From IMG/VR virus record IMGVR_UViG_3300018492_000150, positions 49,640-113,639 of that record: a stretch of 64,000 nt of DNA, one strand, 5' to 3'. Position 1 is the first letter of the stretch. Each line of letters opens with the position of its first letter. A program made the position numbers and the translations under genes. The stretch comes from a virus. Lineage: Duplodnaviria > Caudoviricetes. Positions 1 to 63,817 of the stretch are shown here, in pieces. The notes beneath the pieces were generated by a model. It was given only the letters and a program-made list of their open reading frames with translations. It was not told the DNA's origin and did no database searches.

Positions 1-331
1 TTGCAGATCTAAGGATATTGTTAGTTTCCTGATATTTCTTTTCATATGGCTCGTTTGTTTCCATAAAAGATAATTCACGTTTACTTTTATCATCACCCAC
101 GTCAAAATTTTCTGCAACTTGCGTCATATGAGAAGGACTAGAAAACAATGATATCCCTGATCCAGCATCATTCTTTCTAGGTCTTCCTCTTTTTTTCTTT
201 CCAGTAGAAGTAGTTTCTTCTACATCTGATGCCATAATAGGGACATCTATAGATTTAGTAAAATCTATAATAATAGAACCATCAGTAGGTTGTTCTATTT
301 TTGTTTCTATTTCTCTAGTAAATGGTTTCAT
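1..331 (-). CDS. Partial protein with AT-hook motif (runs off the window start)
   Basis: Not in ORF track. ATG at 331 after GGAGG RBS; translates MKPFTREIETK...GKKKRGRPRKND... with no stop before base 1. Confidence 0.75.
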   Translation of the reverse strand, partial: MKPFTREIETKIEQPTDGSIIIDFTKSIDVPIMASDVEETTSTGKKKRGRPRKNDAGSGISLFSSPSHMTQVAENFDVGDDKSKRELSFMETNEPYEKKYQETNNILRSA

Positions 332-460
332 TACTAATACCTCCAATTCTTATAAATCATTAATTTGATGTGTAAACCATATAATTGTAATTTTACAAGC
401 AGAATTACATATAAATAATACATAATTGCACCAGAACTGGGCAAGATAGGAGAGGTTATT

Positions 461-2422
461 ATGGCGCTTTTAACAAGACATCCGAATGGATCTGATTTAA
501 CAATTTTAAATACTTCGTATCATTATCCAAGAAGAGATGAAGATACAGGTAAATATAATAAAGATTTTATTACAGTTGTGTATAAAGATAATATAACAGG
601 AACAAAACATCATGAGATTATCTATGAACCGAATTATAGATTTTATCAAGCTAACGATGATGTGAATATAGAACATAATATGTTTTATATTAGTAAAGAT
701 AAAGTTCATCCTATGGAATGTAAGTTTTCTGAATTACAGAAAACAATAGCAGAAGTAACTGGAAATTTAGATTTCTTCTATGAGAATATTAAAACTGGAA
801 ATAGAAGAGCTAATAGAGCTTTAAATACGATACCTAGTATTTTTAGTAGTGATGTAAATATTGAAGATCATTATAGAGCTAGATTTGCTCAAGATTATGT
901 AAATGAAGTTCATCCAGTAACTAAAGGATATTTCGATATCGAGGTTGATACTAAAAGAATGAGAGGAGATTTCCCTCAAATGGGAGAATGCCCTGTCAAT
1001 GCAGTATCATATATAGATGATAAAACTAATACAGTTAATGTGTTCTTATTAAGAGATATCGAAGGAGATAATCCTTTGATAGAAGAATTTGAAACATCAA
1101 ATTTTAGTAATCAACAATCTGCCCAACAGTTATTTCAAGAACTTCAACAGTTCATAATTGATAATGTTGGAGGTCCAGAGAAAGCAAAGAAATTTGGAGT
1201 TGATAATTTAAACTTTCAGTTCATGTTTTTTGATGATGAAGTTAAATTATTATATACATTATTCCAAGTTATAAATTCAAATTCTCCAGATTTCATGTTA
1301 GCATGGAATATGGCATTCGATATTCCTTATATAATAGAAAGATGTTATACTTTAGGTATAGATCCGGCAATGGTATTATCTGCAATGGATTATGTTGAAA
1401 AGTATGCTACCTATTATATAGATGAACAGCATAGGAATGAATATGAATTAAGAGGAGATTATTATGATATCGCTGCAGATACAGTATATCTTGATCAGTT
1501 AGTTCAGTTTGCTTCTAGACGAAAAGGTCAAGCAGCATTCCCAAACTTCAAGCTTGATACGGCTGCGGATATTATCACTAAAGGAGCAGTAAGAAAGTTA
1601 GACTATAGTCATATTACCACAAATCTTACAGAGTTGCCTTATAAAGACTACAAGACATTTGTTTTTTATAATATCATGGATACAATTGCTCAGAAATGTA
1701 TCGAAGTAACTGTTGAAGATGTAGATTATATCTATGCGGTTAGTGTAGATAATGATACACGATACTGTAAAGGTCACAGACAAACAGTATATCTTACTAA
1801 TAGAACTAGAAAGTTCTTTTATAGTAAAGGATATATTTTAGGAAATAACTGTAATAGCGGAGAATCATCTCACTATGCAGGCGCATTAGTAGGAGATCCA
1901 ACTCATAATAGCGATTACGCTAAATTAAAAGATGGAGATCAGACATATAATATTGTAGATAATAGTGATGACTTTGACTTTAAAGCTCTATATCCGAGTG
2001 TTGATAGAGAAAATAACTTAGCACCTGATACTATTATCGGAAAGATTCTTATAGATGAACCTGTTCATAATTTAGAGAATCCGTATCATGATGAAGATTA
2101 TGATAGAGGAGGACAATTTATTGAAGATCTTGTAACTGGAAATAATCTTGAATTTGGTAAGAGATGGTTAGGATTAGCTGACGTGAATGAAATGCTCAAA
2201 GATATTGATGAATACTTTGAAGTTCATAATCCGTTTAGACCTGTTAATGTATTTACTGAATCTGGAAATATCAAACCATTTATCTTTATGCCTAATATTA
2301 AAGACGGAGAAATGACAAGACCGTTTATAGTATTGGAAGAAGACGAAATGGTACGTCCATTTGTACGACATAACGGAGATAAAGATGAAATGGTGAAAAG
2401 TGTACTTGATAGTATATTATAA
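461..2422 (+). CDS. Family B DNA polymerase, N-terminal subunit (3'-5' exonuclease plus motif A)
   Basis: ExoI YFDIEVD, ExoII AWNMAFDIPY, ExoIII YNIMD, motif A DFDFKALYPS; lacks motifs B and C. Confidence 0.92.
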   Translation: MALLTRHPNGSDLTILNTSYHYPRRDEDTGKYNKDFITVVYKDNITGTKHHEIIYEPNYRFYQANDDVNIEHNMFYISKDKVHPMECKFSELQKTIAEVTGNLDFFYENIKTGNRRANRALNTIPSIFSSDVNIEDHYRARFAQDYVNEVHPVTKGYFDIEVDTKRMRGDFPQMGECPVNAVSYIDDKTNTVNVFLLRDIEGDNPLIEEFETSNFSNQQSAQQLFQELQQFIIDNVGGPEKAKKFGVDNLNFQFMFFDDEVKLLYTLFQVINSNSPDFMLAWNMAFDIPYIIERCYTLGIDPAMVLSAMDYVEKYATYYIDEQHRNEYELRGDYYDIAADTVYLDQLVQFASRRKGQAAFPNFKLDTAADIITKGAVRKLDYSHITTNLTELPYKDYKTFVFYNIMDTIAQKCIEVTVEDVDYIYAVSVDNDTRYCKGHRQTVYLTNRTRKFFYSKGYILGNNCNSGESSHYAGALVGDPTHNSDYAKLKDGDQTYNIVDNSDDFDFKALYPSVDRENNLAPDTIIGKILIDEPVHNLENPYHDEDYDRGGQFIEDLVTGNNLEFGKRWLGLADVNEMLKDIDEYFEVHNPFRPVNVFTESGNIKPFIFMPNIKDGEMTRPFIVLEEDEMVRPFVRHNGDKDEMVKSVLDSIL

Positions 2423-2427
2423 ATATG

Positions 2428-2646: not shown

Positions 2647-2790
2647 ATGAAAAATAAACCGATATTAACGAAGATAATAATACTTGCCGTATTTATATTA
2701 TATTTGCTTATATTCAGCGGTATAGTACCAATATACATAAATCTGATATTAGGTGGTATTGTTGGATATATTTTAGGGAGGATGGGTTAA
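2647..2790 (+). CDS. 47-aa membrane microprotein
   Basis: AAGGAG RBS; MKNKPILTKIIILAVFILYLLIFSG...; stop overlaps next ATG (TAATG). Confidence 0.65.
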   Translation: MKNKPILTKIIILAVFILYLLIFSGIVPIYINLILGGIVGYILGRMG

Positions 2791-3398
2791 TGTATGATAT
2801 TGATGCTACGATGAAGATAGCAAAGAGCATGAAGAGACCTATAGTGCATGTAGGTAATAATTATATGCTCGGTACTGATTTAGAATTTTGTACTTTAAGT
2901 ATAATAGAAACCAATTCGATTATACCAAGACCATTTACAACTACAATAAATGGTTGGTTAAATAAAATGGCTAAAGATAAGTATGCTCAAGATCATCCAG
3001 AGATATTCTTTACTGAATATTCTCGCTTAGATGATAATCTATATATAAATATATGGGAAGAAGACACTTATACAAGAAAAATATTTGAATTATTTGGTAA
3101 AGTAAATAATTACTTATATGGAAGAGTTCCTATTTATTCAGGAAGTAATTTTGAGAAAGATGAAAATTTTATCAGAAACGTAAGTAAACTTAAAGTATCA
3201 GATGGACTGAAAACTTATACTATTGATAACACTTACTTGATTACAAGTTTCAATAAAGTGCATTGTATTAATGCATCTGATAAAGTATCATTGAATATCT
3301 ATGATATCGATACTGAATCTTATTTATATGAATTTATTATAGATAAGAAAAAATATATCGTAAAAGAATACATCAGATATAGAAAGATGAGCATTTAA
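2790..3398 (+). CDS. Hypothetical protein, possible sliding-clamp fold
   Basis: 202 aa, GGAGG RBS; clamp resemblance is by residue pattern only. Confidence 0.5.
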   Translation: MYDIDATMKIAKSMKRPIVHVGNNYMLGTDLEFCTLSIIETNSIIPRPFTTTINGWLNKMAKDKYAQDHPEIFFTEYSRLDDNLYINIWEEDTYTRKIFELFGKVNNYLYGRVPIYSGSNFEKDENFIRNVSKLKVSDGLKTYTIDNTYLITSFNKVHCINASDKVSLNIYDIDTESYLYEFIIDKKKYIVKEYIRYRKMSI

Positions 3399-6767: not shown

Positions 6768-8660
6768 TTAATACATTGGTTTGTAGCTAGTATCACTATT
6801 AGCCACAGTAGCCTGCTCTGTTCCAAGAGTGTAGATATTAAGAATCTCGCTCTGAACGAAGTCTTTATGTTTAACTTTAAGGGATGCTTCGAAGATCTTA
6901 TTAGCCTTCATAATATCATCCTGTACATATACGAATTCGAGAGACTCGAACCATCCTGTATATTTATTGATGATACGATTTACTGCTTTCTTGTAAGATT
7001 GCAGATCATCTGTAGAAATGAAGCTGTATCTGAACTTCGGACAGTTATCACGTACGTCTTTAACGATAGCCTGAATAGCAATAACGTTATTAGCAAATGA
7101 TAATTGTGTAAGCTCTGCCTGACTTGTAAACTCTGTTTCCATTGTAAGGACATTGTTAAGAACAGAAGCATAGTTCAGTCTAATATCATCCAAAGCAATT
7201 TTCTGGTTTGTAACCGGAGTGATCTTTGGAGTGAAGTTTACTGTACCTTCGATTGCTTCTGGGAATGTCCAGCCATACAGAATACCACAGTAAGGCGTAT
7301 TTCTCTTTGTATTGAGATGATCAATAATACATCTTGAGATACCGTAACTAATTGTTACGTTGATACGACGTTTTGTGAATGGGTTGAGAATCTGATAAGA
7401 TTGTCCATACCATCCTGTAAACTTATCTCTAGGCATATCAATCATTTTCATCTGAGCATTTTCGAAAGTATTTACATCCAGACCAAGGTCTCCGAAGAAA
7501 TAGAAATCTTTACGGAATTTAGCAAGGTCGTAAATAGCTTTCTTAACTGCATATGGGTAGTTTGCATCGATACATGCATCTGGTTTATACATATCCAGAT
7601 TAAAGATATCACTGTCAAATGTACCATTGTAGAACTCAACAAGTTCTTGTTCATATTCATCAGTGTCGATCGGCTTATCACCGAAAGCACCATTAGTTCC
7701 AGATTCAAGGCCAAATCCCATTGTGATACCAAGGTTCTGGCTTGTTTCATCAAGAGCGTAGCCCTGTACAGGTGCTCCTTTGCTGTCTTTTCCGAACAGA
7801 ACATCGATTTTATATAATTCATCTACAGAAATACCTGAGATTTCGGAAACTCTAGCATAGAATGCGTCTACGCATTCTTCCAAAGCTTCTGCTCTACATT
7901 GAAGCATTTCTGTTGATGCCATACCTATATCCATAGATTTTTCCAGATAAATAACACCTGGAGTTAATGCAAAGTAAACGGATTCAGCATCTAAATCTTC
8001 AGATCCGAGATATTTGAATCTATAGATCATGAAGTTCTGATTTTTACTGATACCATACTGAGGATCAATTCCAAAACGTTTTGTAGAAACACCACGACCA
8101 TTATCTACGATAACAGCAAGTGGATAAGTGAAGATATTCTCATCTTCATTTTCAACAAAAGATTTTCTTGCCTCTTCGGCAATTTCAGCCTGAGTTTTCT
8201 TTCCTGTAACAGTAACAAGTTCGAATTTTGTTTTAGCAATGTTGATCATTACTTTTTCATTGCTCTCGCCAGGATCTGTTGTCTCTTCATGAGTAACAGA
8301 ATCGATATATAATGGTTTACCGTCTTTGTCAGTTTTCTGAACTCTGTCAGTAGAAACCTTAGCGACGATAACGATATTTGCAAGAGTTGCATCTTTAGCA
8401 ACTACACGTTTGATCATTAATTCGCCACCATTGTTGATGATATTGGCAGCCTGGATTGCAGCCTGTCCATATTTTTCAAAATCGATAAAATAGCCGAATA
8501 ACTTGTAGAAGTTTTGTCCGACTACACGAGTAATTTTTTCAGGTCCTCTATCGAATGCAGCCGCCGTTAACAGTAACGGGTTCGGTGTCTTTTCAACAGT
8601 AGGTTGTGATTTGATACCAGATTGATCAATCCAGTTATTTATTGTTCCTGGATACTGCAT
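6768..8660 (-). CDS. Contractile tail sheath protein
   Basis: 630 aa, N-terminal YPG, C-terminal sheath-like domain, adjacent tube, late promoter at 8708-8719. Confidence 0.85.
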   Translation of the reverse strand: MQYPGTINNWIDQSGIKSQPTVEKTPNPLLLTAAAFDRGPEKITRVVGQNFYKLFGYFIDFEKYGQAAIQAANIINNGGELMIKRVVAKDATLANIVIVAKVSTDRVQKTDKDGKPLYIDSVTHEETTDPGESNEKVMINIAKTKFELVTVTGKKTQAEIAEEARKSFVENEDENIFTYPLAVIVDNGRGVSTKRFGIDPQYGISKNQNFMIYRFKYLGSEDLDAESVYFALTPGVIYLEKSMDIGMASTEMLQCRAEALEECVDAFYARVSEISGISVDELYKIDVLFGKDSKGAPVQGYALDETSQNLGITMGFGLESGTNGAFGDKPIDTDEYEQELVEFYNGTFDSDIFNLDMYKPDACIDANYPYAVKKAIYDLAKFRKDFYFFGDLGLDVNTFENAQMKMIDMPRDKFTGWYGQSYQILNPFTKRRINVTISYGISRCIIDHLNTKRNTPYCGILYGWTFPEAIEGTVNFTPKITPVTNQKIALDDIRLNYASVLNNVLTMETEFTSQAELTQLSFANNVIAIQAIVKDVRDNCPKFRYSFISTDDLQSYKKAVNRIINKYTGWFESLEFVYVQDDIMKANKIFEASLKVKHKDFVQSEILNIYTLGTEQATVANSDTSYKPMY

Positions 8661-8750
8661 ATCTTTTCCTCCTTTATATTCTATTATACATTTTATACTA
8701 ATGTAATTACTGATATGTTTATAATAGGCAATATGTATGGACTATAAAAA

Positions 8751-9491
8751 TTAGCCCGTAAGAACCCTTTCTAGAGGCGTAGAATCGTTGTTTTTATTCA
8801 TTACAGCTCCTACTACAGCCTTATCAAAGTTCTCACTTGTAAGCGATGTGAATGGACTTACTAATTTAGGAACAGTCTTTACGGATATAGGATTATACGA
8901 ACATAAATCGTTATCTAAAGATTTGCCTAATCTAAATGGTTTATTGATATCTTTTGGATCTCTACATAATTCTGAAACTAGCAATCCAAACAATGATGCT
9001 GGTAATTTATATGACGAACCATTGATTGCAATTGAATCTAAAAAGTATTTATATAATTCAGTATACGGTATAGTTTTTGGTATATTACCAGTATCTACAA
9101 ATAACCTAAAGAAATCCTCTACATTAGTTATATCCTGGGGAACTTTGGTAGATACTATAATTTGGTCTTCTCCATTATTTTCATAATGAAAGATACTATA
9201 ATCTGATACAAAATTATCAGTAATAGCAAAGTTTTTTACTTTTTCTATTCTTCCAGGTTTAGTTATAAATCTAGATGGAAAATAAAAGTTTTTAATCTTC
9301 TTTCCTGTTTCAATTTTATCAGATTTATTATTTATACTATAATTACAGATACCAATCAATTCAACAAAGTTACCTTCAATAACTGCAACTTTTCTATCGA
9401 AATAGACTTCTGGTACAAATAGTAAGAATTCTCCTTCTCCACTATAATACACAGATTCTTCTTTAACTTTTAAAAATCCAGGTATTGGCAT
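8751..9491 (-). CDS. Probable RNA polymerase beta' extreme C-terminal fragment (possibly virion RNAP)
   Basis: LFGLLVSELCRD and SPFTSLTSENFDKAVVGA...PLERVLTG align by eye with beta' HIEVIVRQM and SFISAASFQETTRVL...LKENVIVG; late promoter at 9518-9529. Confidence 0.5.
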   Translation of the reverse strand: MPIPGFLKVKEESVYYSGEGEFLLFVPEVYFDRKVAVIEGNFVELIGICNYSINNKSDKIETGKKIKNFYFPSRFITKPGRIEKVKNFAITDNFVSDYSIFHYENNGEDQIIVSTKVPQDITNVEDFFRLFVDTGNIPKTIPYTELYKYFLDSIAINGSSYKLPASLFGLLVSELCRDPKDINKPFRLGKSLDNDLCSYNPISVKTVPKLVSPFTSLTSENFDKAVVGAVMNKNNDSTPLERVLTG

Positions 9492-20121: not shown

Positions 20122-20545
20122 CGAATATTTCAATCTAGTCGCAACTTAGATTGCATGGCCATTTCCATGTCACTTCCATTACAGAACGTGCGTAGATCAT
20201 GTGTCATTCCTAAAAAATAATTTAGGACCAGGATTTTTCTTCCTCCATTAGCTTGAGGTTCTACTCCCTCGTCAAGGGATGATCGTTGAACGTATATCTC
20301 ACCTTCTTTATATTATATATAGTATATATGAGATATTTCGCTGCTACACGTAGGCTTGTTGATAAGAACTTAGGATTTAACCTTATTCTCATCCAGACAA
20401 CTTTTTTCTGCTTTCGCAACCATCACGCTCATCCTTACGGATCACGTTGTGGTGTGTCTGGTTCTTGACCTATAAGTCGTAGCAATTAACTCTGTTGAAA
20501 CTTAACAATTACTCGTTAAGCTGCGATTTGCTGAATAGCTTCGCC
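20122..20545 (-). ncRNA. ORF-less group I intron in terminase (5' boundary 20545 or 20542)
   Basis: Minus strand has TTAATTGCT, ACAACGTGA...GAGCGTGATGGTTGCGAAAGCAGAAAA, GCAGC and GTTCAACGA blocks shared with the other introns; ends in G. Confidence 0.85.
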
Positions 20546-21967
20546 ATTACGCTCTATATTAACTATAGCATTCGGTATATACTTAGTTACCAATTCATAT
20601 ATAACTTTAGCTAAATCTGTTGTAGAAATATAGTTGCAGTTTAGACATGCAACTGTTTCTGTTGTTCTGGAGTCTACTACAGTTATAGCAGAAGCATCCT
20701 TACTATAACCTCCAGAAACGTCGACTCCTACTAATGGTGGCCAGTTTACACTTTCAGCCATCATAGGTTTATATATATCGAGGAAGTAGTAATTTCCCAA
20801 TGCAACTTGAGTTACAGGTTCTTTAATAAGAGATTGTACAGTATCCAAATCTTGTTTTGTAAATGGAGAGTTATCTGAACTATTAGACCATTCAAGTAAA
20901 ACTTCTCGTCTAATTGCAGGCCAGTTCTTCTTCATATCAATACAGATTTGTCTAAAGTATTCTTCTCCAGATCCAAGCTGCTTATAAGTAAATCTTATAT
21001 AGAAGAAACTACTATCAGTATTAGTATTCTTCAATTCTTGGAGTTTTTCTAAGCTCCAATCGTAATATTGCTCATTAAATGGTATAGCTGCATTTTTAGT
21101 TTCAAATGCATCCATTCCTTCATCGGTAGTCATATCACCAGGAGTTGTAGTGATAAGAATACCATAAGGAGCACCATTTCGTTTAGCATTCTTAGATGCT
21201 GTTGAGAATGCAGGTGTTGCTGCAGAATAGATGATAGAGTTATGCAAAATAAACGCATACTCATCATACCAGTGTATAGGCATAGTACAACCACGACCGA
21301 TACTGTTAGCATTAGCTTTGTTCCTAGCACCTGGTTTAGTAGAAATTTTATTTGAGTTAAATGGGTTCTTGATAGATTCTACGTTTTCTGATAACTTCAT
21401 AGGTTTACCATCTTTACCTGGAACTTCATCAAATCTTAGATATCTAGGTAACGCAGATCGTATCTCTTTAATTCTAGCCAAGTTCAATTTAGAGTCATCA
21501 TGTTTCTTGTTCATAAACATCATTTCTGAGTTGGTAGTACCAAATAAGTATACCCATAAATACCAGCATAATGCCGATACAGTTTTACCATGCTGACGAG
21601 GTAACTCTAAAAACATATTCCAGTTTAATATGAAACCGAAGTTTAATGCAAGATTACCTCTATGAAGTTTATATCTTACACCCCCACCTACTGTATTACC
21701 TTGGTCAGGGATAAGAATTACTTCTCTAATAAAATACCAAAAGTTAATCATACACTCTCTTAATATTTTAGCTTTCATAACTTCATTAAGAGTAGGATCT
21801 CGAGGATTAACTCCCGCTAAATCTCTATCATATAATATAAGAAAGAATTTATTATTCTTTATTCCTTTAGCTTTCAAAAAATAATGCATTTCAAGGAATG
21901 ATTTATTACTGGTCTCCATCTGATAGTATACAGATACTGGACCTGATTGTTGTTGCTGAACAACCAT
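20546..21967 (-). CDS. Terminase large subunit, exon 1
   Basis: Walker A LPRQHGKT, Walker B HWYDE, ITTTP, RNase H-like GVDVSGG. Confidence 0.9.
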
Positions 21968-22063
21968 ATTGAGTTCACCTCCAATCAATTACTTATATGT
22001 ACTAGAATGGAGGGTTTATATCAAAAAATAAAAGAGGAAGGTACTTAAACCTTCCTCTTTTAC

Positions 22064-22480: not shown

Positions 22481-23350
22481 TTAATGCTGCTCTGCATAAT
22501 TTTTGATAAATTCATACGCTGTTGAAAGGTATAACTTAATAACTTTCAACACTGCTTTTGCATGATCAACATCTTTGTCTTTGATGTAATCATATACAAA
22601 ACTTACTGTTTTTCGATCTGTGTCATCAACATACTCAGATTTATTCATAGCGTCTAATGCTTCTACTAATGTCTTGGAAAATAAGTCATTGCTTGTTCCG
22701 ATCAAGTCATTAATGCAAGATACAACTAAATAATATGATGATCTCATATCATCAGAATAATCTGGCACCACTGCATCGGCATTTGATGCTGATAAATCAC
22801 AAAGAGCTTTAATAAATTTTTTCTGATTATCTTCATCAATAAAAGTTAAAGCCTCACACTGCACCATCATGGCTCCCAGTTCTACATCTGTAGCTACATC
22901 CTGCACAACTCTTTTTAATTCTGTCTCGGTTACATAATTTTCGTTATTTGTATTTGTCATTTCTTTTTCCTCTTCTTTCTCATTTTTATTATTGTACATT
23001 TCATTCATCTGTTCCATAAGAGTACCCATAGTTCTAATGAAAGATTTAATTTCTTTAAATTCTTCGTCGCATTTTAATAACTCAACGTACCCAAAGAACT
23101 GTGAGAAAATATCGTAATCTTTATTACTACATCTTCTCAATAAATTTCGTTCTACGATATCCATAGTACCATAGAATTCTTCCTGATTTTCAATTTCGCT
23201 AAGATTCTTCATTAATATAATAGCATCTTCAAATCCATTTCCAAGAGTGATTCTTTCACTCTCTAAAACTCTTTTTGAGAAACGTCTAAGTGTTTCCTCA
23301 TCACTGTTTCTTGAAATCCATACTCTTTCGATAATTTCCATTGCTCTCAT
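22481..23350 (-). CDS. Hypothetical early protein
   Basis: 289-aa ORF preceded by ATATTAT-N5-TGA at 23441-23455. Confidence 0.7.
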   Translation of the reverse strand: MRAMEIIERVWISRNSDEETLRRFSKRVLESERITLGNGFEDAIILMKNLSEIENQEEFYGTMDIVERNLLRRCSNKDYDIFSQFFGYVELLKCDEEFKEIKSFIRTMGTLMEQMNEMYNNKNEKEEEKEMTNTNNENYVTETELKRVVQDVATDVELGAMMVQCEALTFIDEDNQKKFIKALCDLSASNADAVVPDYSDDMRSSYYLVVSCINDLIGTSNDLFSKTLVEALDAMNKSEYVDDTDRKTVSFVYDYIKDKDVDHAKAVLKVIKLYLSTAYEFIKNYAEQH

Positions 23351-41414: not shown

Positions 41415-43181
41415 ATGATTATTGGTGAAGCGCCGAGACGTAATATGTCCGACAGTTTTAAAAACGACCCAATGCATAGTTTCGTTGAGTCCTATGTTAA
41501 TCTTACACAGGGCATCTTAAACGAAAATGCAACTGATATATATACAGACCCAGCAAGAGCATTTATGGCAAATGGAAGTAACGAAGCTCTTAAAAACTTC
41601 TTCGTAGAAAATTCTTACGATCCACAGGGTATGACTCCAGATGAAATCGAAGACCATGTTGCTACTATGGAACAACAGTATGACAATGACCGTTCAGGTC
41701 TTCTTGAGCAGACAATGATGAGCTCTATGAATCCAATGATCGGCATCACAATTCCGATGCACAAATGGATTCTTATGAATATGGTATTTGACAAAGGTGC
41801 TATTCCGAAGTTTGTTGCTCGTTCACCGAAGTTTACAATTTCTATGGAATATCGTATCTTGGTTGACACAGAAGGAAATGAACTGGATATGTTCCGTGAT
41901 CAGAACCTTATGACAGACGCTATCGAAAAGACAGCTCCAGAGGTTGAGTTTGAACTTCCAACACTTCCATTCACAGATGACAATGAAGTTGTACACACCT
42001 ACCTTAACGGTCTTGCAGGCGCAGATCATCTGTCTATTGAGACAAGAATCTCAGCTTTTAAAATCCAAAACCAGTATTTTGAAATTGGCGATATTCTTCC
42101 AGATGAGAAGACTGGATATATTGAGCCAAATGGTAAAGTAGCTACAGAAGCAGGTAATCATGATGTTTGGGTTAGATGTAATTATGCATTTGCACCTACA
42201 TATGGTGAAGTTGAACGTGCTCTTATGGCGAACGTTTCTTATGAGTATAAAGTAAATGAAGGCGGAGTTAAGATCAAGAAAATTACAGACTTCGTTTCTG
42301 GTACAATGCAGAACGACAGACTTAACATTCAGGTTCTTAAAGGAAACCTTAAAGGTATTCGTATCACTTCAAGATTGGATACATCCAGTGCACGTCTTAC
42401 AACATGTAGCGTAAGATGGAAAGAGAAAACAGATATTGTTGAAATTCCAAATGCTATTCCGATAGACGTAACAGTATCTCCAGAAGAAACAAAAGATATC
42501 GCAGCTCTTTACAATGTAAATCAGGTAACTAAGATCATGAGCATGATCAAAACAGTTCTTGGAAATACAAAAGACGATCAGATCAGAAGAAAACTTGATC
42601 AGTCTTATAAGACAATGGATGTACGTTCTAAAACATACAGCCAGTTCGATTACGCTCCTCGTGAAGGATATCACGGAGATCATGTTGAGTGGAGAAGAAA
42701 TACATTCTTCGATTTCTTCGATTCTCAGATGACAAAACTGTATCAGGTATTAAACGATCCGAACATGACAGTTTCTGTATTCGGTGATCCAGATCTTGTA
42801 AGAAAGATTACACCGACAGATTATAGCTACCAGACACCGTCTAACATCGGACCAGTGCAGCTTGACTTCACAAAGACAGTTGTTACTTCTGATTCTAGAG
42901 TATACAACTTCATCGGTTCTGATAAACTTCGTGGATCAACAGAATTTATCGTAGTTCTGTGTCCAAGAGGAACAGATAGAATTATCTACAGAATCTATGA
43001 TTACCAGATGTATATCAGCAATGAAATTAGAAACGCTGATAATCCGGCATTACCGAACATCCATGCATTCGAGCGTTGGAAATTCGTAGAATATCAGCCA
43101 GTTCAGGGACGTATCAATATCTTACATCCTACAGGATTGACAGATCACTACGACTTTGTTCAGGTTAAACAAGTTCAGTAA
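41415..43181 (+). CDS. Major capsid protein
   Basis: 588 aa in head cluster; high-expression codon usage (TTC, AAC, CGT); own late promoter at 41345-41356 and strong terminator. Confidence 0.75.
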   Translation: MIIGEAPRRNMSDSFKNDPMHSFVESYVNLTQGILNENATDIYTDPARAFMANGSNEALKNFFVENSYDPQGMTPDEIEDHVATMEQQYDNDRSGLLEQTMMSSMNPMIGITIPMHKWILMNMVFDKGAIPKFVARSPKFTISMEYRILVDTEGNELDMFRDQNLMTDAIEKTAPEVEFELPTLPFTDDNEVVHTYLNGLAGADHLSIETRISAFKIQNQYFEIGDILPDEKTGYIEPNGKVATEAGNHDVWVRCNYAFAPTYGEVERALMANVSYEYKVNEGGVKIKKITDFVSGTMQNDRLNIQVLKGNLKGIRITSRLDTSSARLTTCSVRWKEKTDIVEIPNAIPIDVTVSPEETKDIAALYNVNQVTKIMSMIKTVLGNTKDDQIRRKLDQSYKTMDVRSKTYSQFDYAPREGYHGDHVEWRRNTFFDFFDSQMTKLYQVLNDPNMTVSVFGDPDLVRKITPTDYSYQTPSNIGPVQLDFTKTVVTSDSRVYNFIGSDKLRGSTEFIVVLCPRGTDRIIYRIYDYQMYISNEIRNADNPALPNIHAFERWKFVEYQPVQGRINILHPTGLTDHYDFVQVKQVQ

Positions 43182-43325: not shown

Positions 43326-44015
43326 ATGAATGCAATTGTGGCTATTGATGATAAGAATGGAATTGGAAAAGAAGGACAGCTTTTAATAAAATTAAAAGCT
43401 GATATGAAATGGTTTAAAAATATTACTACTAACAAAGTAGTTATTATGGGAAGAAAAACTATGGAAAGTATAGGAAAACCACTACCTAATAGATTAAATA
43501 TTGTACTTACTAGAAATTATACATTAAATAAACCTGGATATATTTTTCTTCATTCTATCGAAGATCTCATGATGTTTCTGAGACTCAAACGTATCTCTAC
43601 AAAGGATTGTTTTGTAATTGGCGGACAGCAAATTTATAAAGCTCTAGAAAGACAGATAACGTATGTATACGTTACAAGAATTCATAAAACATTTGAATCA
43701 GACGCAAAATTTCCTATACCATTTAAAGCTATGAAACTACTATGTTCATCTCGTATTAGAGGAGAAAATGGAATTAATTATGAATTTCAGGTATATAGAA
43801 ATTGTGGATTGTTCTTAGATTTTTTACAACATATATTAGAAAGACCATTAAGAACTGATGAGATTGAATTATCTAAAAGAATACTAACTTCTGATACAAA
43901 TTTGAAATTGGTATTGGTAGAAGGGACAGCAGAACAATTAGGAATAGATACATCTAAAGGATTAAGAAGAAAATTCAGTTATGAAACTATAAAAGAATTC
44001 TCAGAAGACAAATAA
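43326..44015 (+). CDS. folA: Dihydrofolate reductase with C-terminal extension
   Basis: AIVA..NGIGKEG.L, DMKWFK, VIMGRKT, PLPNRLNIVL, VIGG.QIY. Confidence 0.93.
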   Translation: MNAIVAIDDKNGIGKEGQLLIKLKADMKWFKNITTNKVVIMGRKTMESIGKPLPNRLNIVLTRNYTLNKPGYIFLHSIEDLMMFLRLKRISTKDCFVIGGQQIYKALERQITYVYVTRIHKTFESDAKFPIPFKAMKLLCSSRIRGENGINYEFQVYRNCGLFLDFLQHILERPLRTDEIELSKRILTSDTNLKLVLVEGTAEQLGIDTSKGLRRKFSYETIKEFSEDK

Positions 44016-48139: not shown

Positions 48140-50161
48140 CTACTGATTTATTTTTTCTATATAAAAACAACTATCGTCTATATTTAAACAATATCCTTTA
48201 TTTATATCATTAAATATTTTAGAGCAATAATTAAATACTGCACTCCTACATTTTGGAAATAATATTTGATCATTATTTTTAGCTTTATTCAAATTCCACC
48301 CAATTATAGCAAAAGAATTGTCTTTTGCATATGGAAGCATTATATCTTCATACATATACGCACAATCTTTACATGCTACTATTTCTTTAGTTAATAACTT
48401 TTTCGCATATTCAGCTTTAGATAACAATTCATTATTTTCTTCTGCAGACTCTTTTATATTATTCTTTGCTTTTGGTACTGGTACAGATGGAGCTGACCCA
48501 GAATAATTTCCTGCTTTAGTTTGACTTGTTTTCTTTTTTGTACTTTTCACTTTCAATTGCATAGCAGGATTCTTATAATATTTCGTGCTCTCATCTTCCA
48601 TATCAATGTCTTGTGTGGAGGACTCCTGAAATAATACACCTTTATAGTTAAATCTATATAGAACGTCATGTTTTAATAATAGATACATTGCAAATATCTC
48701 TCCAGGAACAGCTACAAGTATAACAGATATCCTTCTCCAATCATCTTGTATATTTATATGATATAAATTAGCTCTGACTCGTTTTAGAGGAGGGCAGTTA
48801 TCGTTAATAAGTTTTGAATATTTTTCTTGTGTAATATTAAGTGTAGTATAAAACCTGAAAGGATATGGACGATTTGTATCTTGTATTTTGAATTTGTAAT
48901 ACTTTCTTGCAGCATTTATCGCTGCATCTTTAACTGCAAGATATTCATCTCTATCATTAGTAGGAAATCCCACTTCAGGTATCTTATAGTAATACCCTTT
49001 ATATAATTTCTTATATTCGTTATATAAATAAGATTCATTTCCTGTTGTAATATAATCTACGTATGCAGATTGAGAATCTTCATAAATAATATCAGAAGGA
49101 CTATACTTTCCTTTCTTTATATCATTACAATGTCTATCTGTGACTTTATAATCATAATTAAAGAAATCAAATCCCCTATTTACAAGAGAAATATTTTGCA
49201 ATTGAGTAATATCACTGGGTTTCCATAGAGACGGAACCTTAGATAGCTCTTGAGCTTTAGATATAATCTCCATAACAAATCTAGAACAAAACCATTTCTC
49301 ATGATCTTCTGATTCTTTTCCAAACCAAATATCAAATAATCCTTTAAAATCATATTTTAAAGTATCTTTATGGTTTGTAAAATAAGATAGTCTATTTTTC
49401 ATAGACTTATATGCGTTATCCGTAACATACATTACATATACATTATATTTAGAATTAAATTTTGTAAAGAATTTATCTTTAGGATCATTTATAGTAAATC
49501 CTATACCTTTTTCTCCTTTTCCTTTAGTTCCAAATGAATATAACGGATCTAATTTAGAATTAAAAGAAATACAAGCATGTGAGAATTCATCGCCTGTAAC
49601 TTTTTTAATAGCGTTCGCTAAAGGAGTTCCGCTATGCATTAATACTATATATACAGGATTCTTTTGAGATTTGGAGAAAATAGCTTCTTCATTTATAGTA
49701 ACGGATTCATCTATATCATCTACTTTATGTATACTCATAAAATACATTTTTTCTGTTTCTTTGTATGTTTTAAATCCATAAGATTTATATAGTTTATATG
49801 CTATCTGATTTGATTTGTTTACAGATAAATGAGTTACTCCCAAATCATTTACGGCAACTTTTAAAATCTGCTTAGATAATCCATGACCTTTATATTTCCC
49901 AAATATTTCAAATGATATTATCCATTTATAATCATCATCTTTTTCTTCTACATTAATAAGACCTACTATATCTTGATCATCTAACCATACATATCCTTTC
50001 GTATCTTTAGTTATCCTTACATGAGATAATTGACTATATTGGGATTTATAAATTTGCAAAATTGCATCTGTTAATTTAATTTTTTGAAAATGAGATAAAT
50101 ACATATCTCTTTTTGAACTGTAGTCATCTATAACTTTAGATGAAATTGATTCGAATATCAT
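48140..50161 (-). CDS. Multidomain protein: GNAT acetyltransferase plus permuted NlpC/P60 (YiiX-like) domain
   Basis: YKGHGLSKQIL..N..A..LY..YGF (GNAT); FSHACISF...WFCSRFV (His before Cys, permuted papain-like). Confidence 0.75.
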   Translation of the reverse strand: MIFESISSKVIDDYSSKRDMYLSHFQKIKLTDAILQIYKSQYSQLSHVRITKDTKGYVWLDDQDIVGLINVEEKDDDYKWIISFEIFGKYKGHGLSKQILKVAVNDLGVTHLSVNKSNQIAYKLYKSYGFKTYKETEKMYFMSIHKVDDIDESVTINEEAIFSKSQKNPVYIVLMHSGTPLANAIKKVTGDEFSHACISFNSKLDPLYSFGTKGKGEKGIGFTINDPKDKFFTKFNSKYNVYVMYVTDNAYKSMKNRLSYFTNHKDTLKYDFKGLFDIWFGKESEDHEKWFCSRFVMEIISKAQELSKVPSLWKPSDITQLQNISLVNRGFDFFNYDYKVTDRHCNDIKKGKYSPSDIIYEDSQSAYVDYITTGNESYLYNEYKKLYKGYYYKIPEVGFPTNDRDEYLAVKDAAINAARKYYKFKIQDTNRPYPFRFYTTLNITQEKYSKLINDNCPPLKRVRANLYHINIQDDWRRISVILVAVPGEIFAMYLLLKHDVLYRFNYKGVLFQESSTQDIDMEDESTKYYKNPAMQLKVKSTKKKTSQTKAGNYSGSAPSVPVPKAKNNIKESAEENNELLSKAEYAKKLLTKEIVACKDCAYMYEDIMLPYAKDNSFAIIGWNLNKAKNNDQILFPKCRSAVFNYCSKIFNDINKGYCLNIDDSCFYIEKINQ

Positions 50162-56572: not shown

Positions 56573-57238
56573 ATGTATATAACTGACGTACTGGTTCCTT
56601 TCGATATACTTGTAGATACTGATATGGGATTGCTAAAATTATTGGAATTTGATTATGATAATGATTTATATTTTTTGCAAGGTATACTTCATACATCTGA
56701 ACTCAATCAACAGTACACCATGGTTACGAGAAATAAAGTAAATCCATTAAGCGCTATACTTCAATATGAAGATGATGATCTTGCAGAAAATTTGTATTCC
56801 CAGTTTATGGAAAAAGAATATAACCAGATTCTTAAATTATCTTGTAATACTGCAGTGAGAGATCTCTCGGAGTTACTTATTACTACTATAGATCAAGTTG
56901 TTAGAATAACAATTCTGTGTAGGTCTGAGCAAGATTTAGAAGAAGTTGAAGAAAGACATATCAAATCATTTAGAACAATAGTGGAGAAAGATTTAAATAA
57001 AATAGATCTATCAGACTATCAAGTTCTATTTGTAAAGAATATTTATGACCTAGATAAATATAGAAATGTAACAGGTCTAAATATATATGTGCCAAATTAT
57101 GGATTTAATATTACAATAGATCCAGAAATGTCACAACCATTATTGCCAGAAGATATATTGAAAAAATACGGAAAAGAAAATGAGTTTGAAATTTTTTCAA
57201 TATATACTTTTGATCCTAGAAAGATTCCTCTGGGGTAA
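56573..57238 (+). CDS. Hypothetical protein
   Basis: AAGGAGG RBS, 221 aa. Confidence 0.7.
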   Translation: MYITDVLVPFDILVDTDMGLLKLLEFDYDNDLYFLQGILHTSELNQQYTMVTRNKVNPLSAILQYEDDDLAENLYSQFMEKEYNQILKLSCNTAVRDLSELLITTIDQVVRITILCRSEQDLEEVEERHIKSFRTIVEKDLNKIDLSDYQVLFVKNIYDLDKYRNVTGLNIYVPNYGFNITIDPEMSQPLLPEDILKKYGKENEFEIFSIYTFDPRKIPLG

Positions 57239-57857: not shown

Positions 57858-59627
57858 ATGACGAATAATAATGGAACAATTTTATCAAACTTAGTAGAAA
57901 CTGATGCTCTTAGAAGAGTTCAGTTATCAGTACTTGAAAAAACAAGTTCAGTTATCAGTAAAACAGCAGGGCCGTTCGGATCTTATTCTATGATTATGCA
58001 TCCGGATAGACTTACAGAATACAGTAAAGATGGTCATAAAGTTTTATCTAACTTTAAATTCTTTAAGCCTCTGGAAAAGGCAGTTCACGATGAATTGCTT
58101 GGAATTACAGAGCATGTAATTAAAAAGGTAGGTGATGGTACTACTACAGCAGTACAGTTATCATATCTTATCTACAAAGAATTATGTGAAAGAACAGAGA
58201 GATGGGAAAAAGCAGGATTCCCTCCATATGCAATTATTTCTGAATTTCAGAAAGTAGTAGGTAAAATTACTGAGAAGATCAGAAGCGGCAGAAGAGAATT
58301 AACTCTCGACGATATCAAACAAATCTGCCTCATCTCTACAAATGGAAATGAAATGGTATCTGAAGATATTGCTTATATCTATAAGAAGTTCGGTAAAGAT
58401 ACATTTATCCAGATTGGAACTTCAAATACAGAAAGTTCCATCTTAAAAACATATGATGGTATTATCCTTAATAAAGGATTCTCTTCTCCGTCATTTATCA
58501 ACACAAGTGAAAATACAGTTAAGATTCCTCAGGCAAATATCTATTACTTCCCTGATCCAGTAGATACACCGGAAATGATTCAGCTGTTTATGCAGATATT
58601 TACAGAGAATATTTATATGCCATACCAGGAAGGTACTGGTAAATACAAACCTACAGTTATCTTAGCTCCATCTTTATCTCAAGATATTTCATCTGCATTG
58701 ATGGATATGGAAAAAATCTTTTATGCATTTGATAAAGCTGGTCAGAAAGAAAACAAACCACCATTCTGTATCATTACAGGTATCAATGATCGTGTAGACA
58801 ATATTGGTGATATTATTACTTTATGCGGCTGCCCGTTTATCAAGAAATATATCAATCCTGATACAAGATTACAGGATATCGAAAACGGAGTTGCTCCATC
58901 AGTAGAAACAGTAACTAACTTTGCAGGGTATGCAGATGAAGTTACTATTGATATTGATAAAATGACTATCGTAAATCCGAAAGAGATGTTTGATAAAGAT
59001 GCAGAAATTGCAGAAGATGGATCAAGGCCATTCTCTGCTACATATAACTCTTTAATCTCTTTCTTAGAAAAACAGATTGAGATTGAGTCTCAGGATAAAA
59101 ACAATCTCAATGCAATCATTGAACTTAAACGCAGGTTGCATTCTCTTACAGCAAACTTTGTAGAGTACAATGTAGGTGGTATCTCTGCAGCAGATAGAGA
59201 TAATGTACGTGACCTTGTCGAAGATGCTGTTCTTAACTGTAGATCAGCTGCTGTAAATGGAGTGGGTCAAGGTGCAGGCATTGAAGGGCTCTGTGCATCT
59301 AAAGAACTTATTCCTGAAGAGGCAAATAGTCTTTTTGGGGAAATTACAGTAATTATCTACAACGCATACAAGACGCTTGTAACTAATCTTTACAAGTCAG
59401 GATTAACTGCAGATGAGGCTGAAGATAAAGTAACTCAGTCAGTAGAAAAGCATAAGGCTTATAACTTAAGAGAGAAATCTTTCAATGGAAATGAAGTATT
59501 ATGTTCTATTGAAACTGATATCTCAGTTCTTGAAGGTATCTCAAGAATCATCACAATTATGTATACATCTAATCAGGCATTTCTTGTAGATCCAATGCAG
59601 AATGCATACATTGAAACAAACGACTAA
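57858..59627 (+). CDS. Phage GroEL-like chaperonin
   Basis: TAGPFG, SKDG, VGDGTTTA, VEDAV, GVGQGAG. Confidence 0.9.
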   Translation: MTNNNGTILSNLVETDALRRVQLSVLEKTSSVISKTAGPFGSYSMIMHPDRLTEYSKDGHKVLSNFKFFKPLEKAVHDELLGITEHVIKKVGDGTTTAVQLSYLIYKELCERTERWEKAGFPPYAIISEFQKVVGKITEKIRSGRRELTLDDIKQICLISTNGNEMVSEDIAYIYKKFGKDTFIQIGTSNTESSILKTYDGIILNKGFSSPSFINTSENTVKIPQANIYYFPDPVDTPEMIQLFMQIFTENIYMPYQEGTGKYKPTVILAPSLSQDISSALMDMEKIFYAFDKAGQKENKPPFCIITGINDRVDNIGDIITLCGCPFIKKYINPDTRLQDIENGVAPSVETVTNFAGYADEVTIDIDKMTIVNPKEMFDKDAEIAEDGSRPFSATYNSLISFLEKQIEIESQDKNNLNAIIELKRRLHSLTANFVEYNVGGISAADRDNVRDLVEDAVLNCRSAAVNGVGQGAGIEGLCASKELIPEEANSLFGEITVIIYNAYKTLVTNLYKSGLTADEAEDKVTQSVEKHKAYNLREKSFNGNEVLCSIETDISVLEGISRIITIMYTSNQAFLVDPMQNAYIETND

Positions 59628-61376: not shown

Positions 61377-62243
61377 ATGAATCACATGATTAGACCTTTT
61401 ACAATAGAAGGTCAACAACAACCAAGAGACAGATCTACTTGGTTCGTCCCAGTAGATCAATGGGAACCGTCTGATCCTATGGATCAGATCTTTAAACCAT
61501 GTAAGGGGGCAGTATGGTTACCGGTGACACAATTCTTTGGTATTAATGATCCTACCAAAGACAATCTTAACTTATTCGTTCTCTCTACCAAACGATGTTA
61601 CAACGGTGATATCATGAGAGAGCACATCTCGAAATATCTTAATTATTTCGAAAAGTATTATGACCAGGATTTAGAATTAGCAATGGCTGTTTCTAAGATC
61701 AAATGTAATATTGATCTTATTCCTGGTTATACTAAAGAGCAGTTTAAATATGATATCGAAAGACTGATACTGTCTGATTCTATCTGTATGAAAGCAGTAT
61801 TGATGAACAACGATAACTATGCTCTGCATCTTGATGAGAAGAAATATAAGAATGAGAAGAATCCTTCTCTTATATATTCTGATCGTCATGCAAAAATCAT
61901 TTTATGGATGTCCTTGTTGATGAATATGGTAATTCCATTAGCAACTCATTTTATTTATATCAACAAGATTCCAAATGCAAATGAGTTCTTATTATGGATA
62001 TTCAACTCTATCTTAAATCTGACAGATGTGGATATCTATAATAAATTCTATGAAACAAGCTCTTCTAATGTAAATCGTTCCAGCAAGAAGCATGAACGTT
62101 TATGGAACAGACAGGATATCAGAGGCAAAGATCCTGTTACACATTCATTAGAGAGTGTACAGAATATTATTCTTAATATCATGCCGAAGTACAGTTATGA
62201 GAAAAACATTATCTCATTTAACTATACTTCAATCAATAAGAAT
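61377..62243 (+). CDS. Probable sigma-like fifth subunit of non-virion RNAP (AR9 gp226/phiKZ gp68-like), exon 1
   Basis: Early motif at 61332; near the chaperonin as gp226 and gp228 are in AR9; Y....AK.....S.LM....P...F pattern; interrupted after YTSINKN. Confidence 0.55.
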
Positions 62244-63817
62244 GGAAAGAAAGTAGCGTAACTTTCTATACGTTCCCTTATAGAAGTGATTCTGTGAGGA
62301 AAAACTACTTTAATTGCTGGGAAGGGCTAGTGCTTATAGAGCTACAACGTGACCTGTGAAGGTGAGCGTGATATGCGGTCGAAAGACAGAAAGAATCTAT
62401 AAGACTGTATAAGGTGAAATAAAAGCTTATATTGATCTGAAAACAATATAGGTCCTAAGTACAATAAACAATGTTCAATCAGCAACCAAGCCTAATTAGA
62501 TAAAAATAAATTACAAAGGAGGACATAATTAATTATGAGAATTTTTAATTATACTAACAGATCACCTGTTTATAATAAACCGTTTATCCAAGAACAATGG
62601 AAACGGATAGACAGTTCAGTTATACCATTTGCAGATGGTCCAAATTGGATAAGTAATTTAGGTAATATATACAATGAAGATTTTGGTTGTATAATAGACC
62701 CTATAGTTGTACAAAGAACTCATGTTAATAGAATCGATGTGTTCGTAGATTATTATTATAATGATGGAACTGTATTCGAGATGAGACGAGCGTCTTTAGC
62801 TAGAACAGTATTACTAGCTTTTGCTCCCATTCCAAATGCAGATAAATTTGATGTAAATCATAATGATAGTGATTCTACTAATAATAAAATATATAATCTT
62901 TCTTGGTGTACTCATAAAGAAAATATACGGTTTGCATATTTGAATGGCAGAATGACTAGACATGATAAGGATGGTAATCTTATCGTTAAATCATTATTAC
63001 GACAAGAAACTATTGATAAAATATGCGAATTATTATTAGAAGGGAAGAATTATATAGAAATAGCTGAAGAAACAAATACTTCGTATAATATAGTATATAG
63101 CATTCATCACGGTAGAACTTATAAAGAAGAATGTGAAAATTATGATTTGGGAAGTGTACCTCAGCCTATTATACGTGAATCTCTTTCAGATACTCAACTA
63201 TCTGAAATATGTGAAATGCTAATCCATCAAATACCTCATCAAGAAATAGCCGATAAAATAGGTTGTTCAAAACAAACGATAAGTTCTATTAAAAATGGAG
63301 TTCTGTATCCAGAATTATATGAAAAATATAATTTAGGGAAATATAAAATACGAGATACAACTAGACTAACCAAAGATCAAAAGAAACAAATGAAAGTTTT
63401 TGTAGATGATAATAAAAATAATTATGCATCTAAAAATGATTTGTTTAGGGATGCGTTGAGATTTGTTGGATTCGATGCTCCCGATAAACTGCCTCAAGAT
63501 CTAAGACAATTTGTATACTACAATACAATATATAAAAAATCTAACTAGGAAGGTTCAACGACTATCGAAATCTATATATCCATAAGAGCTACTCTTATAT
63601 TATTTTATAAGAGTAGCAGGGTTGAAAATAAGGTATAGAAATATACACGAAGAGAGTAGAGTAGAGCCAAAGCGATTGTGGTGGAGAGATCCTTAAATCG
63701 AAATGAGTAGCATTCTCTAAAATATTTAGAGATGATGATATAGTCTCGGCATCTAGGTAAAACCCTAGAGAAGTTCATAAGAGAACTGCATAGAGTAGCG
63801 ATCTATGTGAAGACCCG
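62244..63817 (+). mobile_element. Group I intron with HNH homing endonuclease
   Basis: P1 GAAU pairs with GUUC; TTAATTGCTGGGAA, AATCAGCA, GTTCAACGACTA, GATATAGTCT; P9 hairpin then terminal G at 63817. Confidence 0.88.
62535..63548 (+). CDS. NUMOD4-HNH homing endonuclease with HTH repeats
   Basis: EQWKRI..WISNLG; VNHND..STNNKIYNLSWCTHKEN; HTH-like IAEET and IADKIGCS. Confidence 0.88.
   Translation: MRIFNYTNRSPVYNKPFIQEQWKRIDSSVIPFADGPNWISNLGNIYNEDFGCIIDPIVVQRTHVNRIDVFVDYYYNDGTVFEMRRASLARTVLLAFAPIPNADKFDVNHNDSDSTNNKIYNLSWCTHKENIRFAYLNGRMTRHDKDGNLIVKSLLRQETIDKICELLLEGKNYIEIAEETNTSYNIVYSIHHGRTYKEECENYDLGSVPQPIIRESLSDTQLSEICEMLIHQIPHQEIADKIGCSKQTISSIKNGVLYPELYEKYNLGKYKIRDTTRLTKDQKKQMKVFVDDNKNNYASKNDLFRDALRFVGFDAPDKLPQDLRQFVYYNTIYKKSN

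Follow-up and report, generated by a model that had tools for sequence, protein, structure and literature searches.

A short peptide motif marks DNA-handling proteins in a clade of AR9-like gut jumbo phages and changes in concert between lineages

In phage T4 the proteins gp43, gp33 and gp55 have a common clamp-binding tail, and proteins that bind the bacterial β-clamp follow the consensus Q-L-[SD]-L-F (or QLxLxL). The eukaryotic and archaeal PIP box reads Qxx[ILM]xx[FY][FY], and the C-terminal tip of the bacterial single-stranded DNA-binding protein (SSB), DDDIPF, is a hub for genome-maintenance proteins. Here we describe a peptide tag, [RK]PF[TVI] in its strict form, on DNA-handling proteins of a phage known from a 113,639-bp IMG/VR virus record (G000; estimated completeness 46%), of which the window, the 64,000-nucleotide stretch analysed here, covers bases 49640-113639. 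The tag is like T4-type tails and β-clamp motifs in being a short hydrophobic terminal peptide common to DNA polymerase, DNA enzymes and transcription proteins. As in the gp45 system of T4, the same tag is carried by both PolB subunits and by non-virion RNA polymerase (nvRNAP) proteins β and β′ as well as a 294-amino-acid (aa) protein, and one hub would couple replication and late transcription. It is unlike these systems in that clamp and loader go undetected, that N-termini and internal loops may bear it too, with as many as five copies, that homing endonucleases and core RNA polymerase (RNAP) subunits bear it too, and that it is replaced wholly between related lineages; moreover, the first position is Q in none of 56 non-redundant copies and position 4 is always P. 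With the PIP box and other short linear motifs (SLiMs) it shares a length of 5-7 residues, non-conserved extensions with conserved islands, multivalency and independent gain on unrelated proteins, but the sequence pattern is another one and concerted replacement per lineage takes the place of kingdom-wide conservation. Like the SSB tip, it is a peptide containing Pro-Phe, the kind by which numerous genome-maintenance proteins are brought together on a single protein bound to DNA; unlike in SSB, where the hub bears the peptide, here many clients bear it, the Phe is not the C-terminal residue, and RNAP subunits are among the clients. To our knowledge, AR9- and phiKZ-type jumbo phages have no recognisable primase and no classical SSB. 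The chimallivirus nucleus (ChmA, Imp1/PicA) is similar in its choice of cargo, admitting replication, recombination and nvRNAP proteins and not virion and metabolic proteins; however, the phage described here is AR9-like and a single-sequence search of its relatives gave no chimallin match, and chimallivirus cargo is recognised by Imp1/PicA through surface patches and not through terminal linear signals (PMC13282480).

A simple non-overlapping call of the longest open reading frames (ORFs) gave 114 proteins with 34,129 residues for G000, and [RK]PF[TVI] occurs in them 25 times, in 17 of the 114 proteins, against 1.2 matches expected from composition. Two thousand per-protein residue shuffles produced a mean of 1.2 and a maximum of 6 matches, an enrichment of 20-fold, and when the residue classes were put into their 23 alternative orders, 0-4 matches were obtained, save for two orders that overlap the extended motif. 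In an unbiased k-mer scan PFT, RPF and KPF were the most over-represented 3-mers of the proteome, and IKPF and KPFT the top 4-mers. This is a stronger signal than the first-pass annotation of the window had reported; a six-frame scan of the window gives 16 matches, 12 of them inside called ORFs, and all 12 copies that the annotation listed are present. Nineteen of the 25 copies in the record are terminal (no more than 30 residues from the N-terminus or 60 from the C-terminus), although terminal regions hold 30% of the residues (p about 2e-7), in agreement with the earlier impression that copies lie mostly at termini. The codons do differ between copies, as had been noted (Pro CCA/CCT/CCG, Phe TTT/TTC), and of the matches to the DNA pattern ARRCCNTTY in the record, 28 are in the coding frame, the two remaining sense frames have 0 and 2, the antisense strand has 13, and intergenic DNA has none. 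The signal is confined to the coding frame, and therefore the constraint acts on the peptide. Aligned copies define an extended 7-residue motif, [ML]-[IVT]-[KR]-P-F-[TVI]-[IRYF] (56 non-redundant copies), in which the initiator Met fills the first hydrophobic position of N-terminal copies, and multi-copy tags often consist of two to five copies spaced 10-15 residues apart. The properties by which SLiMs are recognised are thus found here: the motif is short, over-represented and under frame-specific selection at the protein level, it lies outside conserved folds, since most copies are terminal and the alignments with AR9 orthologues, like the outgroup helicases, end before the tags, and it is kept in the orthologues of relatives while the flanks diverge.

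The comparison took in a relative of 247 kb (G001; 99% complete, proteins about 65-71% identical to those of G000), a near-identical strain of 160 kb (G002; 98% identical), three complete relatives with mapped orthologues (G005, G006 and G007) and three complete outgroup genomes (G010, G011 and G013). The strict motif occurs 18 times in G001 against 2.6 expected and 30 times in G002 against 1.8 expected, with copies at matching places, so that the tag is conserved in orthologues. In the SF2 helicase (530 aa; window 31697-33289, plus strand; Pfam ResIII), which has two C-tail tags (IKPFT 33236-33247 and IRPFT 33266-33277, plus strand), the tail reads VRQMIKPFTIKKERIRPFTFEH in G000 and SIKNPKVRPFITKDTVLIRPFTIGHKS in G001, with conserved islands and differing flanks. 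Flanks are unrelated between proteins, and the motif is nonetheless kept across 30-50% protein divergence. Among the 120 best homologues of the helicase (53-93% identity, on contigs of up to 281 kb, all from uncultured jumbo phages), 45 carry the strict motif, usually in two copies, and in the remaining tails that position is taken by different duplicated peptides (RKPVWF/PKPITF, PI[QTK]F[FY]D, [KRN]AF[SGE][FY], KRLFEYV, LVRGVTY, PLMT[KP]I and RPMFY). An internally repeated 4-mer was found in 81 of the 120 tails, against 24-29 of 120 controls.

These replacements extend to other proteins of the same genome. The divergent PolB catalytic subunit, whose second part lies at 28121-29782 (plus strand; Pfam divDNApol), has an internal tag, MIRPFVI, at 28898-28909 (plus strand), and this site reads MTRPFVM in G001. 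In the 21-kb stretches that we examined around the helicase gene of other phages, the helicase of L042 has [PR]GM[VI]Y three times and its polymerase, at residue 402, LIRGMVYE (compare MIRPFVI, at residue 406 of the intron-free strain); the helicase of L036 has [NK]AF[TNG] three times, its polymerase VKAFGS and its β′ tail EKAFSQ; and L039 has SPIYYL on the helicase, CPIYYF on the DnaB-like helicase, CPIYYL on β′ and a 246-aa protein that starts MDNCPIEF. Each variant of the PolB catalytic site agrees with the helicase-tail variant of its own genome. The nvRNAP β′ C-terminal subunit (727 aa; 23525-25708, minus strand; PHROG RNAP match) carries its tag, IRPFV at 23564-23575 (minus strand), 16 residues before the C-terminus, and at the same place we find VKPFTI in G001, KPLFYKIE in G005, CPIYYL in G006 and DAIYFV in G007; likewise, the zinc-ribbon protein has the N-terminus MNKPFVYERADTCP in G001 and MKRLFHKIREDTCP in G005. 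Over 36 non-redundant loci the best 6-mer BLOSUM score between a helicase tail and its own β′ tail averaged 17.7, against 14.8 with those of other genomes, and none of 20000 permutations attained the observed mean; the BLOSUM-based score was adopted because a 5-mer identity covariation score was too blunt (22% vs 8%).

Four regular expressions were then counted in all genomes, those for G005, G006 and G007 having been written after viewing the helicase tails and neighbours of these genomes; values are observed counts over the mean of 60 residue shuffles. The KPF type, [RK]PF[TVI], gave 25/1.2 in G000, 18/2.4 in G001 and 30/1.7 in G002, and 4/2.1, 1/2.1, 3/2.1, 3/2.4, 5/3.0 and 0/2.5 in G005, G006, G007, G010, G011 and G013. 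The G005 type, [RK]LF.K, reached 11/0.8 in G005, with 1/0.3, 2/0.9, 2/0.5, 0/0.7, 3/0.9, 4/1.8, 3/1.1 and 2/1.4 in G000, G001, G002, G006, G007, G010, G011 and G013. For the G006 type, [CSE]PI[YEF][YFL], the value was 9/0.7 in G006 and 0/0.3, 0/0.8, 0/0.6, 0/0.8, 0/0.9, 1/1.1, 0/0.7 and 1/1.1 in G000, G001, G002, G005, G007, G010, G011 and G013, and for the G007 type, [NQDPT]AI[YES]F, it was 11/0.7 in G007 and 0/0.5, 1/0.7, 0/0.4, 1/0.6, 0/0.6, 0/0.6, 1/0.6 and 0/0.7 in G000, G001, G002, G005, G006, G010, G011 and G013. Enrichment of each variant is restricted to its own lineage, and the other genomes are near background. In G005 the k-mer statistics were swamped because copies of one repeat are so numerous: PVCG is seen 57 times in 4 proteins, within a many-copy ...NLTGSPVCGN... 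repeat (L118-L130).

The tag also has clear phyletic limits. The phage is a member of the AR9/PBS1-like branch; a megablast comparison with isolated phages brought up no close relative of G000, and among named phages AR9, PBS1 and vB_BpuM-BpSp come closest, with an identity of about 27%. Helicases whose identity is 36% or lower have no tail, and the AR9 orthologue of the SF2 helicase, g156, has 477 aa and is tail-less. No shared tail peptide was found in G010, G011 or G013 on the orthologues of the helicase, the PolB N subunit (polN), β, β′, the DnaB-like helicase or the ligase, and their ligase is without the insertion that bears the tag. AR9 orthologues are shorter by 50-100 residues and their alignments end before the tags, at residues 681-685 of the 727- and 754-aa RNAP subunits; because the alignment of β′ with AR9 g154, annotated 'non-virion RNAP subunit', ends at residue 681, the β′ tail is a clade-specific addition. 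The absence of tails from outgroups and AR9 indicates that the tag system arose as a derived trait in a single large clade of gut jumbo phages of the AR9-like kind.

The explanation that we favour, without great assurance, is that the tag is a short linear motif for docking, present in multivalent form on flexible extensions and recognised by a hub that the phage encodes. Placed on flexible N- or C-terminal extensions, and on a few inserted loops, of proteins that work on phage DNA, it would allow the hub to gather enzymes of replication, non-virion (late) transcription and DNA processing at the phage genome, the putative cargo being both PolB halves, the SF2 and DnaB-like helicases, NAD (nicotinamide adenine dinucleotide) ligase, GyrB, nvRNAP subunits, PD-(D/E)XK and HNH nucleases, the AT-hook protein and several small proteins. 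The spacing of copies by 10-15 residues suggests avid binding to a partner that is oligomeric or coats DNA. Concerted change on at least 15 proteins, together with absence in outer relatives, most likely reflects a single co-evolving receptor, and points to a phage protein as reader rather than a conserved host pocket. From these patterns we infer that the tag binds a protein, that its receptor is single and phage-encoded, and that the outcome would be co-localisation.

The window encodes further tagged proteins. The AT-hook protein (335 aa, with KKKRGRPRKN) lies at 2-346 on the minus strand (record 48978-49985), where its ORF continues past the window start, and its KPFT tag at 317-328 (minus strand) forms part of the N-terminus MEVLVMKPFTRE; its orthologues start MNKPFTIS in G001 and MAELIRLMTPI in G005, and that of G007 has MAISF. 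PolN, the PolB exonuclease/N subunit (653 aa; 461-2422, plus strand; Pfam DNA_pol_B_exo1), carries three C-tail tags on the plus strand, IKPFI at 2273-2284, TRPFI at 2318-2329 and VRPFV at 2354-2365; there are three copies in G001 also (KPFV, RPFG and KPFY), and G005 has three copies of its own type at the same place (KLFHKF, KLFHKI and ILFHKI). The 294-aa protein at 61377-62261 (plus strand), called sigma-like in the first-pass annotation, has its tag at 61392-61403 (plus strand) in the N-terminus MNHMIRPFTIEG. It shows weak homology to phiR1-37 g245, annotated in RefSeq as 'RNA polymerase', and may be a promoter-specificity subunit; its orthologue starts MSNIKPFTIHGE in G001, and that of G007 has KLNAIYFLDE at residue 11. 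In G007 this tagged protein and the neighbouring 198-aa protein form a single fused ORF (G007 22896-24470; L145), and the same fusion, of about 512-560 aa, occurs in outgroups; the gene has therefore been split in the lineage of the window. One listed copy did not hold up: PRPFT at 2928-2939, internal to the 202-aa product of 2790-3398 (plus strand; no family match), is probably a chance match and not a tag, because the aligned site is unconserved in both relatives' orthologues (SNDFATT in G001, DEEYLGT in G005), and the earlier choice of this product as first partner candidate gains no special support.

Homing endonucleases are tagged as well, as the first-pass annotation had suspected. An HNH/NUMOD4 endonuclease in the intervening sequence of the polymerase gene (27059-27874, plus strand; Pfam NUMOD4 and HNH_3) has IKPFV at 27092-27103 (plus strand), before its NUMOD4 domain, and a second HNH endonuclease (337 aa; 62535-63548, plus strand; Pfam HNH_3 plus helix-turn-helix (HTH) matches) has NKPFI at 62577-62588 (plus strand), its G002 copy starting MKPFIYANRSPVYNKPFIQ with two tags. 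Altogether the tag is present on 4 of 5 HNH proteins in G000/G002, and QRLFYP, which is of the G005 type, on one HNH protein of G005. This suggests that the tag gives access to phage DNA and is not a sign of replisome membership alone. The PolB catalytic gene itself (26417-29782) is split by about 1.3 kb bearing the first HNH ORF; G002 is without that insert and has an uninterrupted polymerase ORF of 699 aa, a polymorphism of presence and absence such as mobile introns typically show.

Upstream of the window, the record encodes further tagged proteins: a third HNH protein, the DnaB-like helicase (C-terminal part), GyrB, NAD ligase with two copies in an N-terminal insertion, the Rpb2-type β subunit, whose tail has four strict copies and one relaxed, and several small proteins without assigned function. 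A PD-(D/E)XK nuclease and the small zinc-ribbon protein are tagged in relatives as well. In AR9 the orthologues of the tagged RNAP subunits are g154 and g089, which both bear the annotation non-virion RNAP. The 578-aa β-N subunit ends in a near-match, RIVPFII, and matches AR9 at 83.6-84.8 kb; judged from this position, the locus tag not having been read, its AR9 counterpart is probably g105. No terminal tag was found on the virion-RNAP-type paralogue (phrog_2962). Consistent with the earlier claim that structural and metabolic proteins are free of the motif, there is no strict copy in the capsid (41415-43181), sheath (6768-8660), terminase (20516-21988), protease (37046-37936) or chaperonin (57858-59627; Pfam Cpn60_TCP1), or in virion proteins. 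In G001 two ORFs of 249 and 221 aa at 7545-9430 (L012) each match the 490-aa terminase of the window, which suggests an intron or intein-like interruption there.

To look for the reader of the tag, we took 80 core proteins from the tagged clade, the majority of which PHROGs and Pfam searches had left without a name, and set them against the outgroups, and three candidates came from the replication/transcription block. The first is a 204-aa protein (record 40079-40753; L004:4079-4753) with a predicted tandem HU/IHF-like fold (predicted local distance difference test (pLDDT) score 90.5). With VIA its model matches single-chain IHF at Z 7.0 and a root-mean-square deviation of 3.8 over 124 residues, while the top matches, at Z 8.2-9.8, are microtubule inner proteins and a Mycoplasma ATPase subunit. 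The protein is confined to this phage clade and to uncharacterised entries for gut 'Myoviridae sp.'. In G001 the orthologue is acidic (isoelectric point 4.3), and an acidic single-chain HU-like protein is unusual. The second candidate is an 87-aa basic protein (record 43596-43859). In a survey of 29 near-complete genomes both families occurred in 17 of 17 tail-bearing genomes, with a convincing presence in none of the 12 tail-less ones, and their genes flank the nvRNAP β-N gene, invariably 3-4.5 kb apart. These two proteins are the best current leads to a receptor, though weak and no more than suggestive. The third candidate, an all-helical 294-aa protein (record 32569-33453; predicted fold with pLDDT 87), is a less exclusive one: its HEAT/ARM/karyopherin similarity is at noise level (Foldseek E >0.06; VIA best Z 6.1) and its family, present in 15 of 17 tail-bearing genomes, is found in 3 of 12 tail-less ones too. 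Identical or 99%-identical copies of this protein (L003:14569-15453) lie on more than 100 contigs each, of up to 330 kb, which shows that the phage is very common in public metagenomes. A neighbouring 217-aa protein was set aside because it has relatives in outgroups and perhaps an HTH, and a 221-aa core protein (window 56573-57238) because of a D-x-D-type motif that by eye resembles HAD nucleotidases. The latter has a conserved F-D-x-[IV]-[IV]-D-T-D-x-G-L start and no Pfam or PHROG match; AR9 encodes a 5'(3')-deoxyribonucleotidase (g151) adjoining its polymerase.

Several points weigh against docking on a phage-encoded hub. The case for docking is drawn from the pattern of the tags by itself, and the receptor may be a host protein that differs between hosts. 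Since the tagged genomes are one clade, the phyletic match of the receptor candidates amounts to a single evolutionary event, and any clade-specific gene would match equally well. The variant enrichment in G005, G006 and G007 is partly circular, the expressions being derived from those tails; matches elsewhere in these genomes and the permutation test are free of that circularity. Under the longest-ORF rule some N-terminal positions may be off. Finally, GyrA, a PIF1-like helicase and an SMC/Rad50-like protein have no strict tag, and a RecA-like protein holds nothing beyond an internal near-match, IIRPFK; some of these could, by assumption, ride on a tagged partner. The first-pass annotation had proposed a docking or address peptide, namely a clamp-binding motif or a signal for a phage DNA compartment. 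Its general idea is strongly supported by conservation at orthologous sites and by the concerted change, whereas neither specific mechanism is borne out: searches for clamp and loader in four near-complete relatives were negative, as was a single-sequence search for chimallin. Both mechanisms are special cases of docking.

A bolder form of the idea, which we regard as possible though doubtful, is that the tag serves as a lineage-specific 'password' to the phage genome, either for import into a compartment not made of chimallin or for docking on a chromatin-like coat. The tandem HU-like and 87-aa basic proteins, found in tagged genomes only, would be candidates for such a coat, and each lineage would coin a new password, driven by selfish nucleases and host defences that learn the old one. 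If this is correct, a linear targeting signal and sorting code would here be described in a bacterial virus for the first time; in the jumbo-phage literature searched we found no linear motif or targeting peptide of this kind.

It is unlikely, in our judgement, that the tag is the handle of a sliding-clamp tool-belt, in which the tags would bind the hydrophobic cleft of the host β-clamp or of a cryptic phage clamp and, as with T4 gp45, one clamp would be shared by polymerase, ligase and nucleases and would switch on late transcription by way of the tagged RNAP subunits. Taken together, the tagged polymerase, ligase, helicases, nucleases and RNAP factors look like a set of clamp clients, the hydrophobic-x-[P/L]-F pattern at termini (LIRLF in G005) is loosely like Q-L-[SD]-L-F, and two to three copies per tail would suit a dimeric or trimeric ring. 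However, the glutamine that defines the clamp motif is present in 0 of 25 copies, and the clamp pocket of the host is one that bacteria conserve strongly, which is difficult to square with the wide differences between the tags KPFT, RLFNK, CPIYY, AIYF, GMVY and PLMTKI in phages with helicases that are 50-70% identical. Nor did models of DnaN (PF00712, PF02768), of T4-type DNA_PPF, PCNA_N or the clamp-loader DNA_pol3_delta2 (PF02916, PF00705, PF13177) give a match at or above the cut-off in G000, G001, G005, G006 or G007, although bacterial and archaeal controls were detected and the four relatives are near-complete (99-100% by CheckV); a very divergent clamp could escape these searches. Group-1 (phiKZ/AR9-type) jumbo phages are described as being without a classical clamp (Iyer et al. 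2021, PMC7824862).

We also consider it improbable that the tag is a sorting signal, a linear password resembling a nuclear localisation signal that would admit proteins into a selective DNA compartment not built of chimallin, and that selfish homing endonucleases would have acquired to reach the DNA. Several observations are in keeping with import: the tag stands at either terminus and in multiple copies, it occurs on every kind of DNA-accessing protein, including the mobile HNH and PD-(D/E)XK nucleases, GyrB has it and GyrA has not, as if by piggy-back, a terminal copy is missing from the virion-RNAP-type paralogue, whose entry would be together with the DNA, and fast lineage-specific change suits a password under conflict. 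On the other hand, a search with phiKZ gp54 found no chimallin homologue in G001, G002, G005, G006 or G007, which is a weak test, since one sequence served as query and there was no positive control. Among the proteins examined, none was recognised as a candidate for a shell, pore or importer, the helical-repeat similarity of the all-helical 294-aa protein being at noise level. AR9-like phages are reported to be without chimallin and no compartment is described for them (PMC13282480, 2026 review), and the surface-patch recognition of chimallivirus cargo is a different principle.

A role in protein quality control is very unlikely. Unfoldases and DnaK typically recognise hydrophobic-basic peptides at termini, and the phage encodes a chaperonin, so that one may imagine a degron or chaperone-binding element, read by a protease, an unfoldase, DnaK or the phage chaperonin, for timed turnover or assisted folding of replication and transcription proteins. 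But the chaperonin occurs in tag-less outgroup genomes too, two to five degron copies on the most essential enzymes are hard to explain, and concerted change per lineage is unexpected if the reader is conserved host machinery. As for a by-product of composition, a repeated DNA element or common descent of tails, the AT-rich genome, its skewed codon use and the one chance-like copy among the 12 of the window speak for it, but chance and a DNA-level repeat are effectively refuted by the enrichment with permuted motifs at background, the single-frame DNA pattern with variable codons, the unrelated flanks, the retention across divergence and the concerted change.

Docking of tagged proteins on a common hub would bear on how the split polymerases, helicases and nvRNAP are held together on jumbo-phage DNA. 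The tag offers a direct experimental handle, for a 20-residue tag peptide is a possible bait for the organising hub and the natural lineage variants are ready-made specificity controls, and the list of tagged proteins predicts which small uncharacterised proteins act on DNA. Tagged homing endonucleases suggest that selfish elements must learn the tag code. The concerted replacement of the motif on at least 15 proteins is a rare and clean case of system-level co-evolution of a peptide code and its reader, in a phage family that is abundant in human-gut metagenomes.

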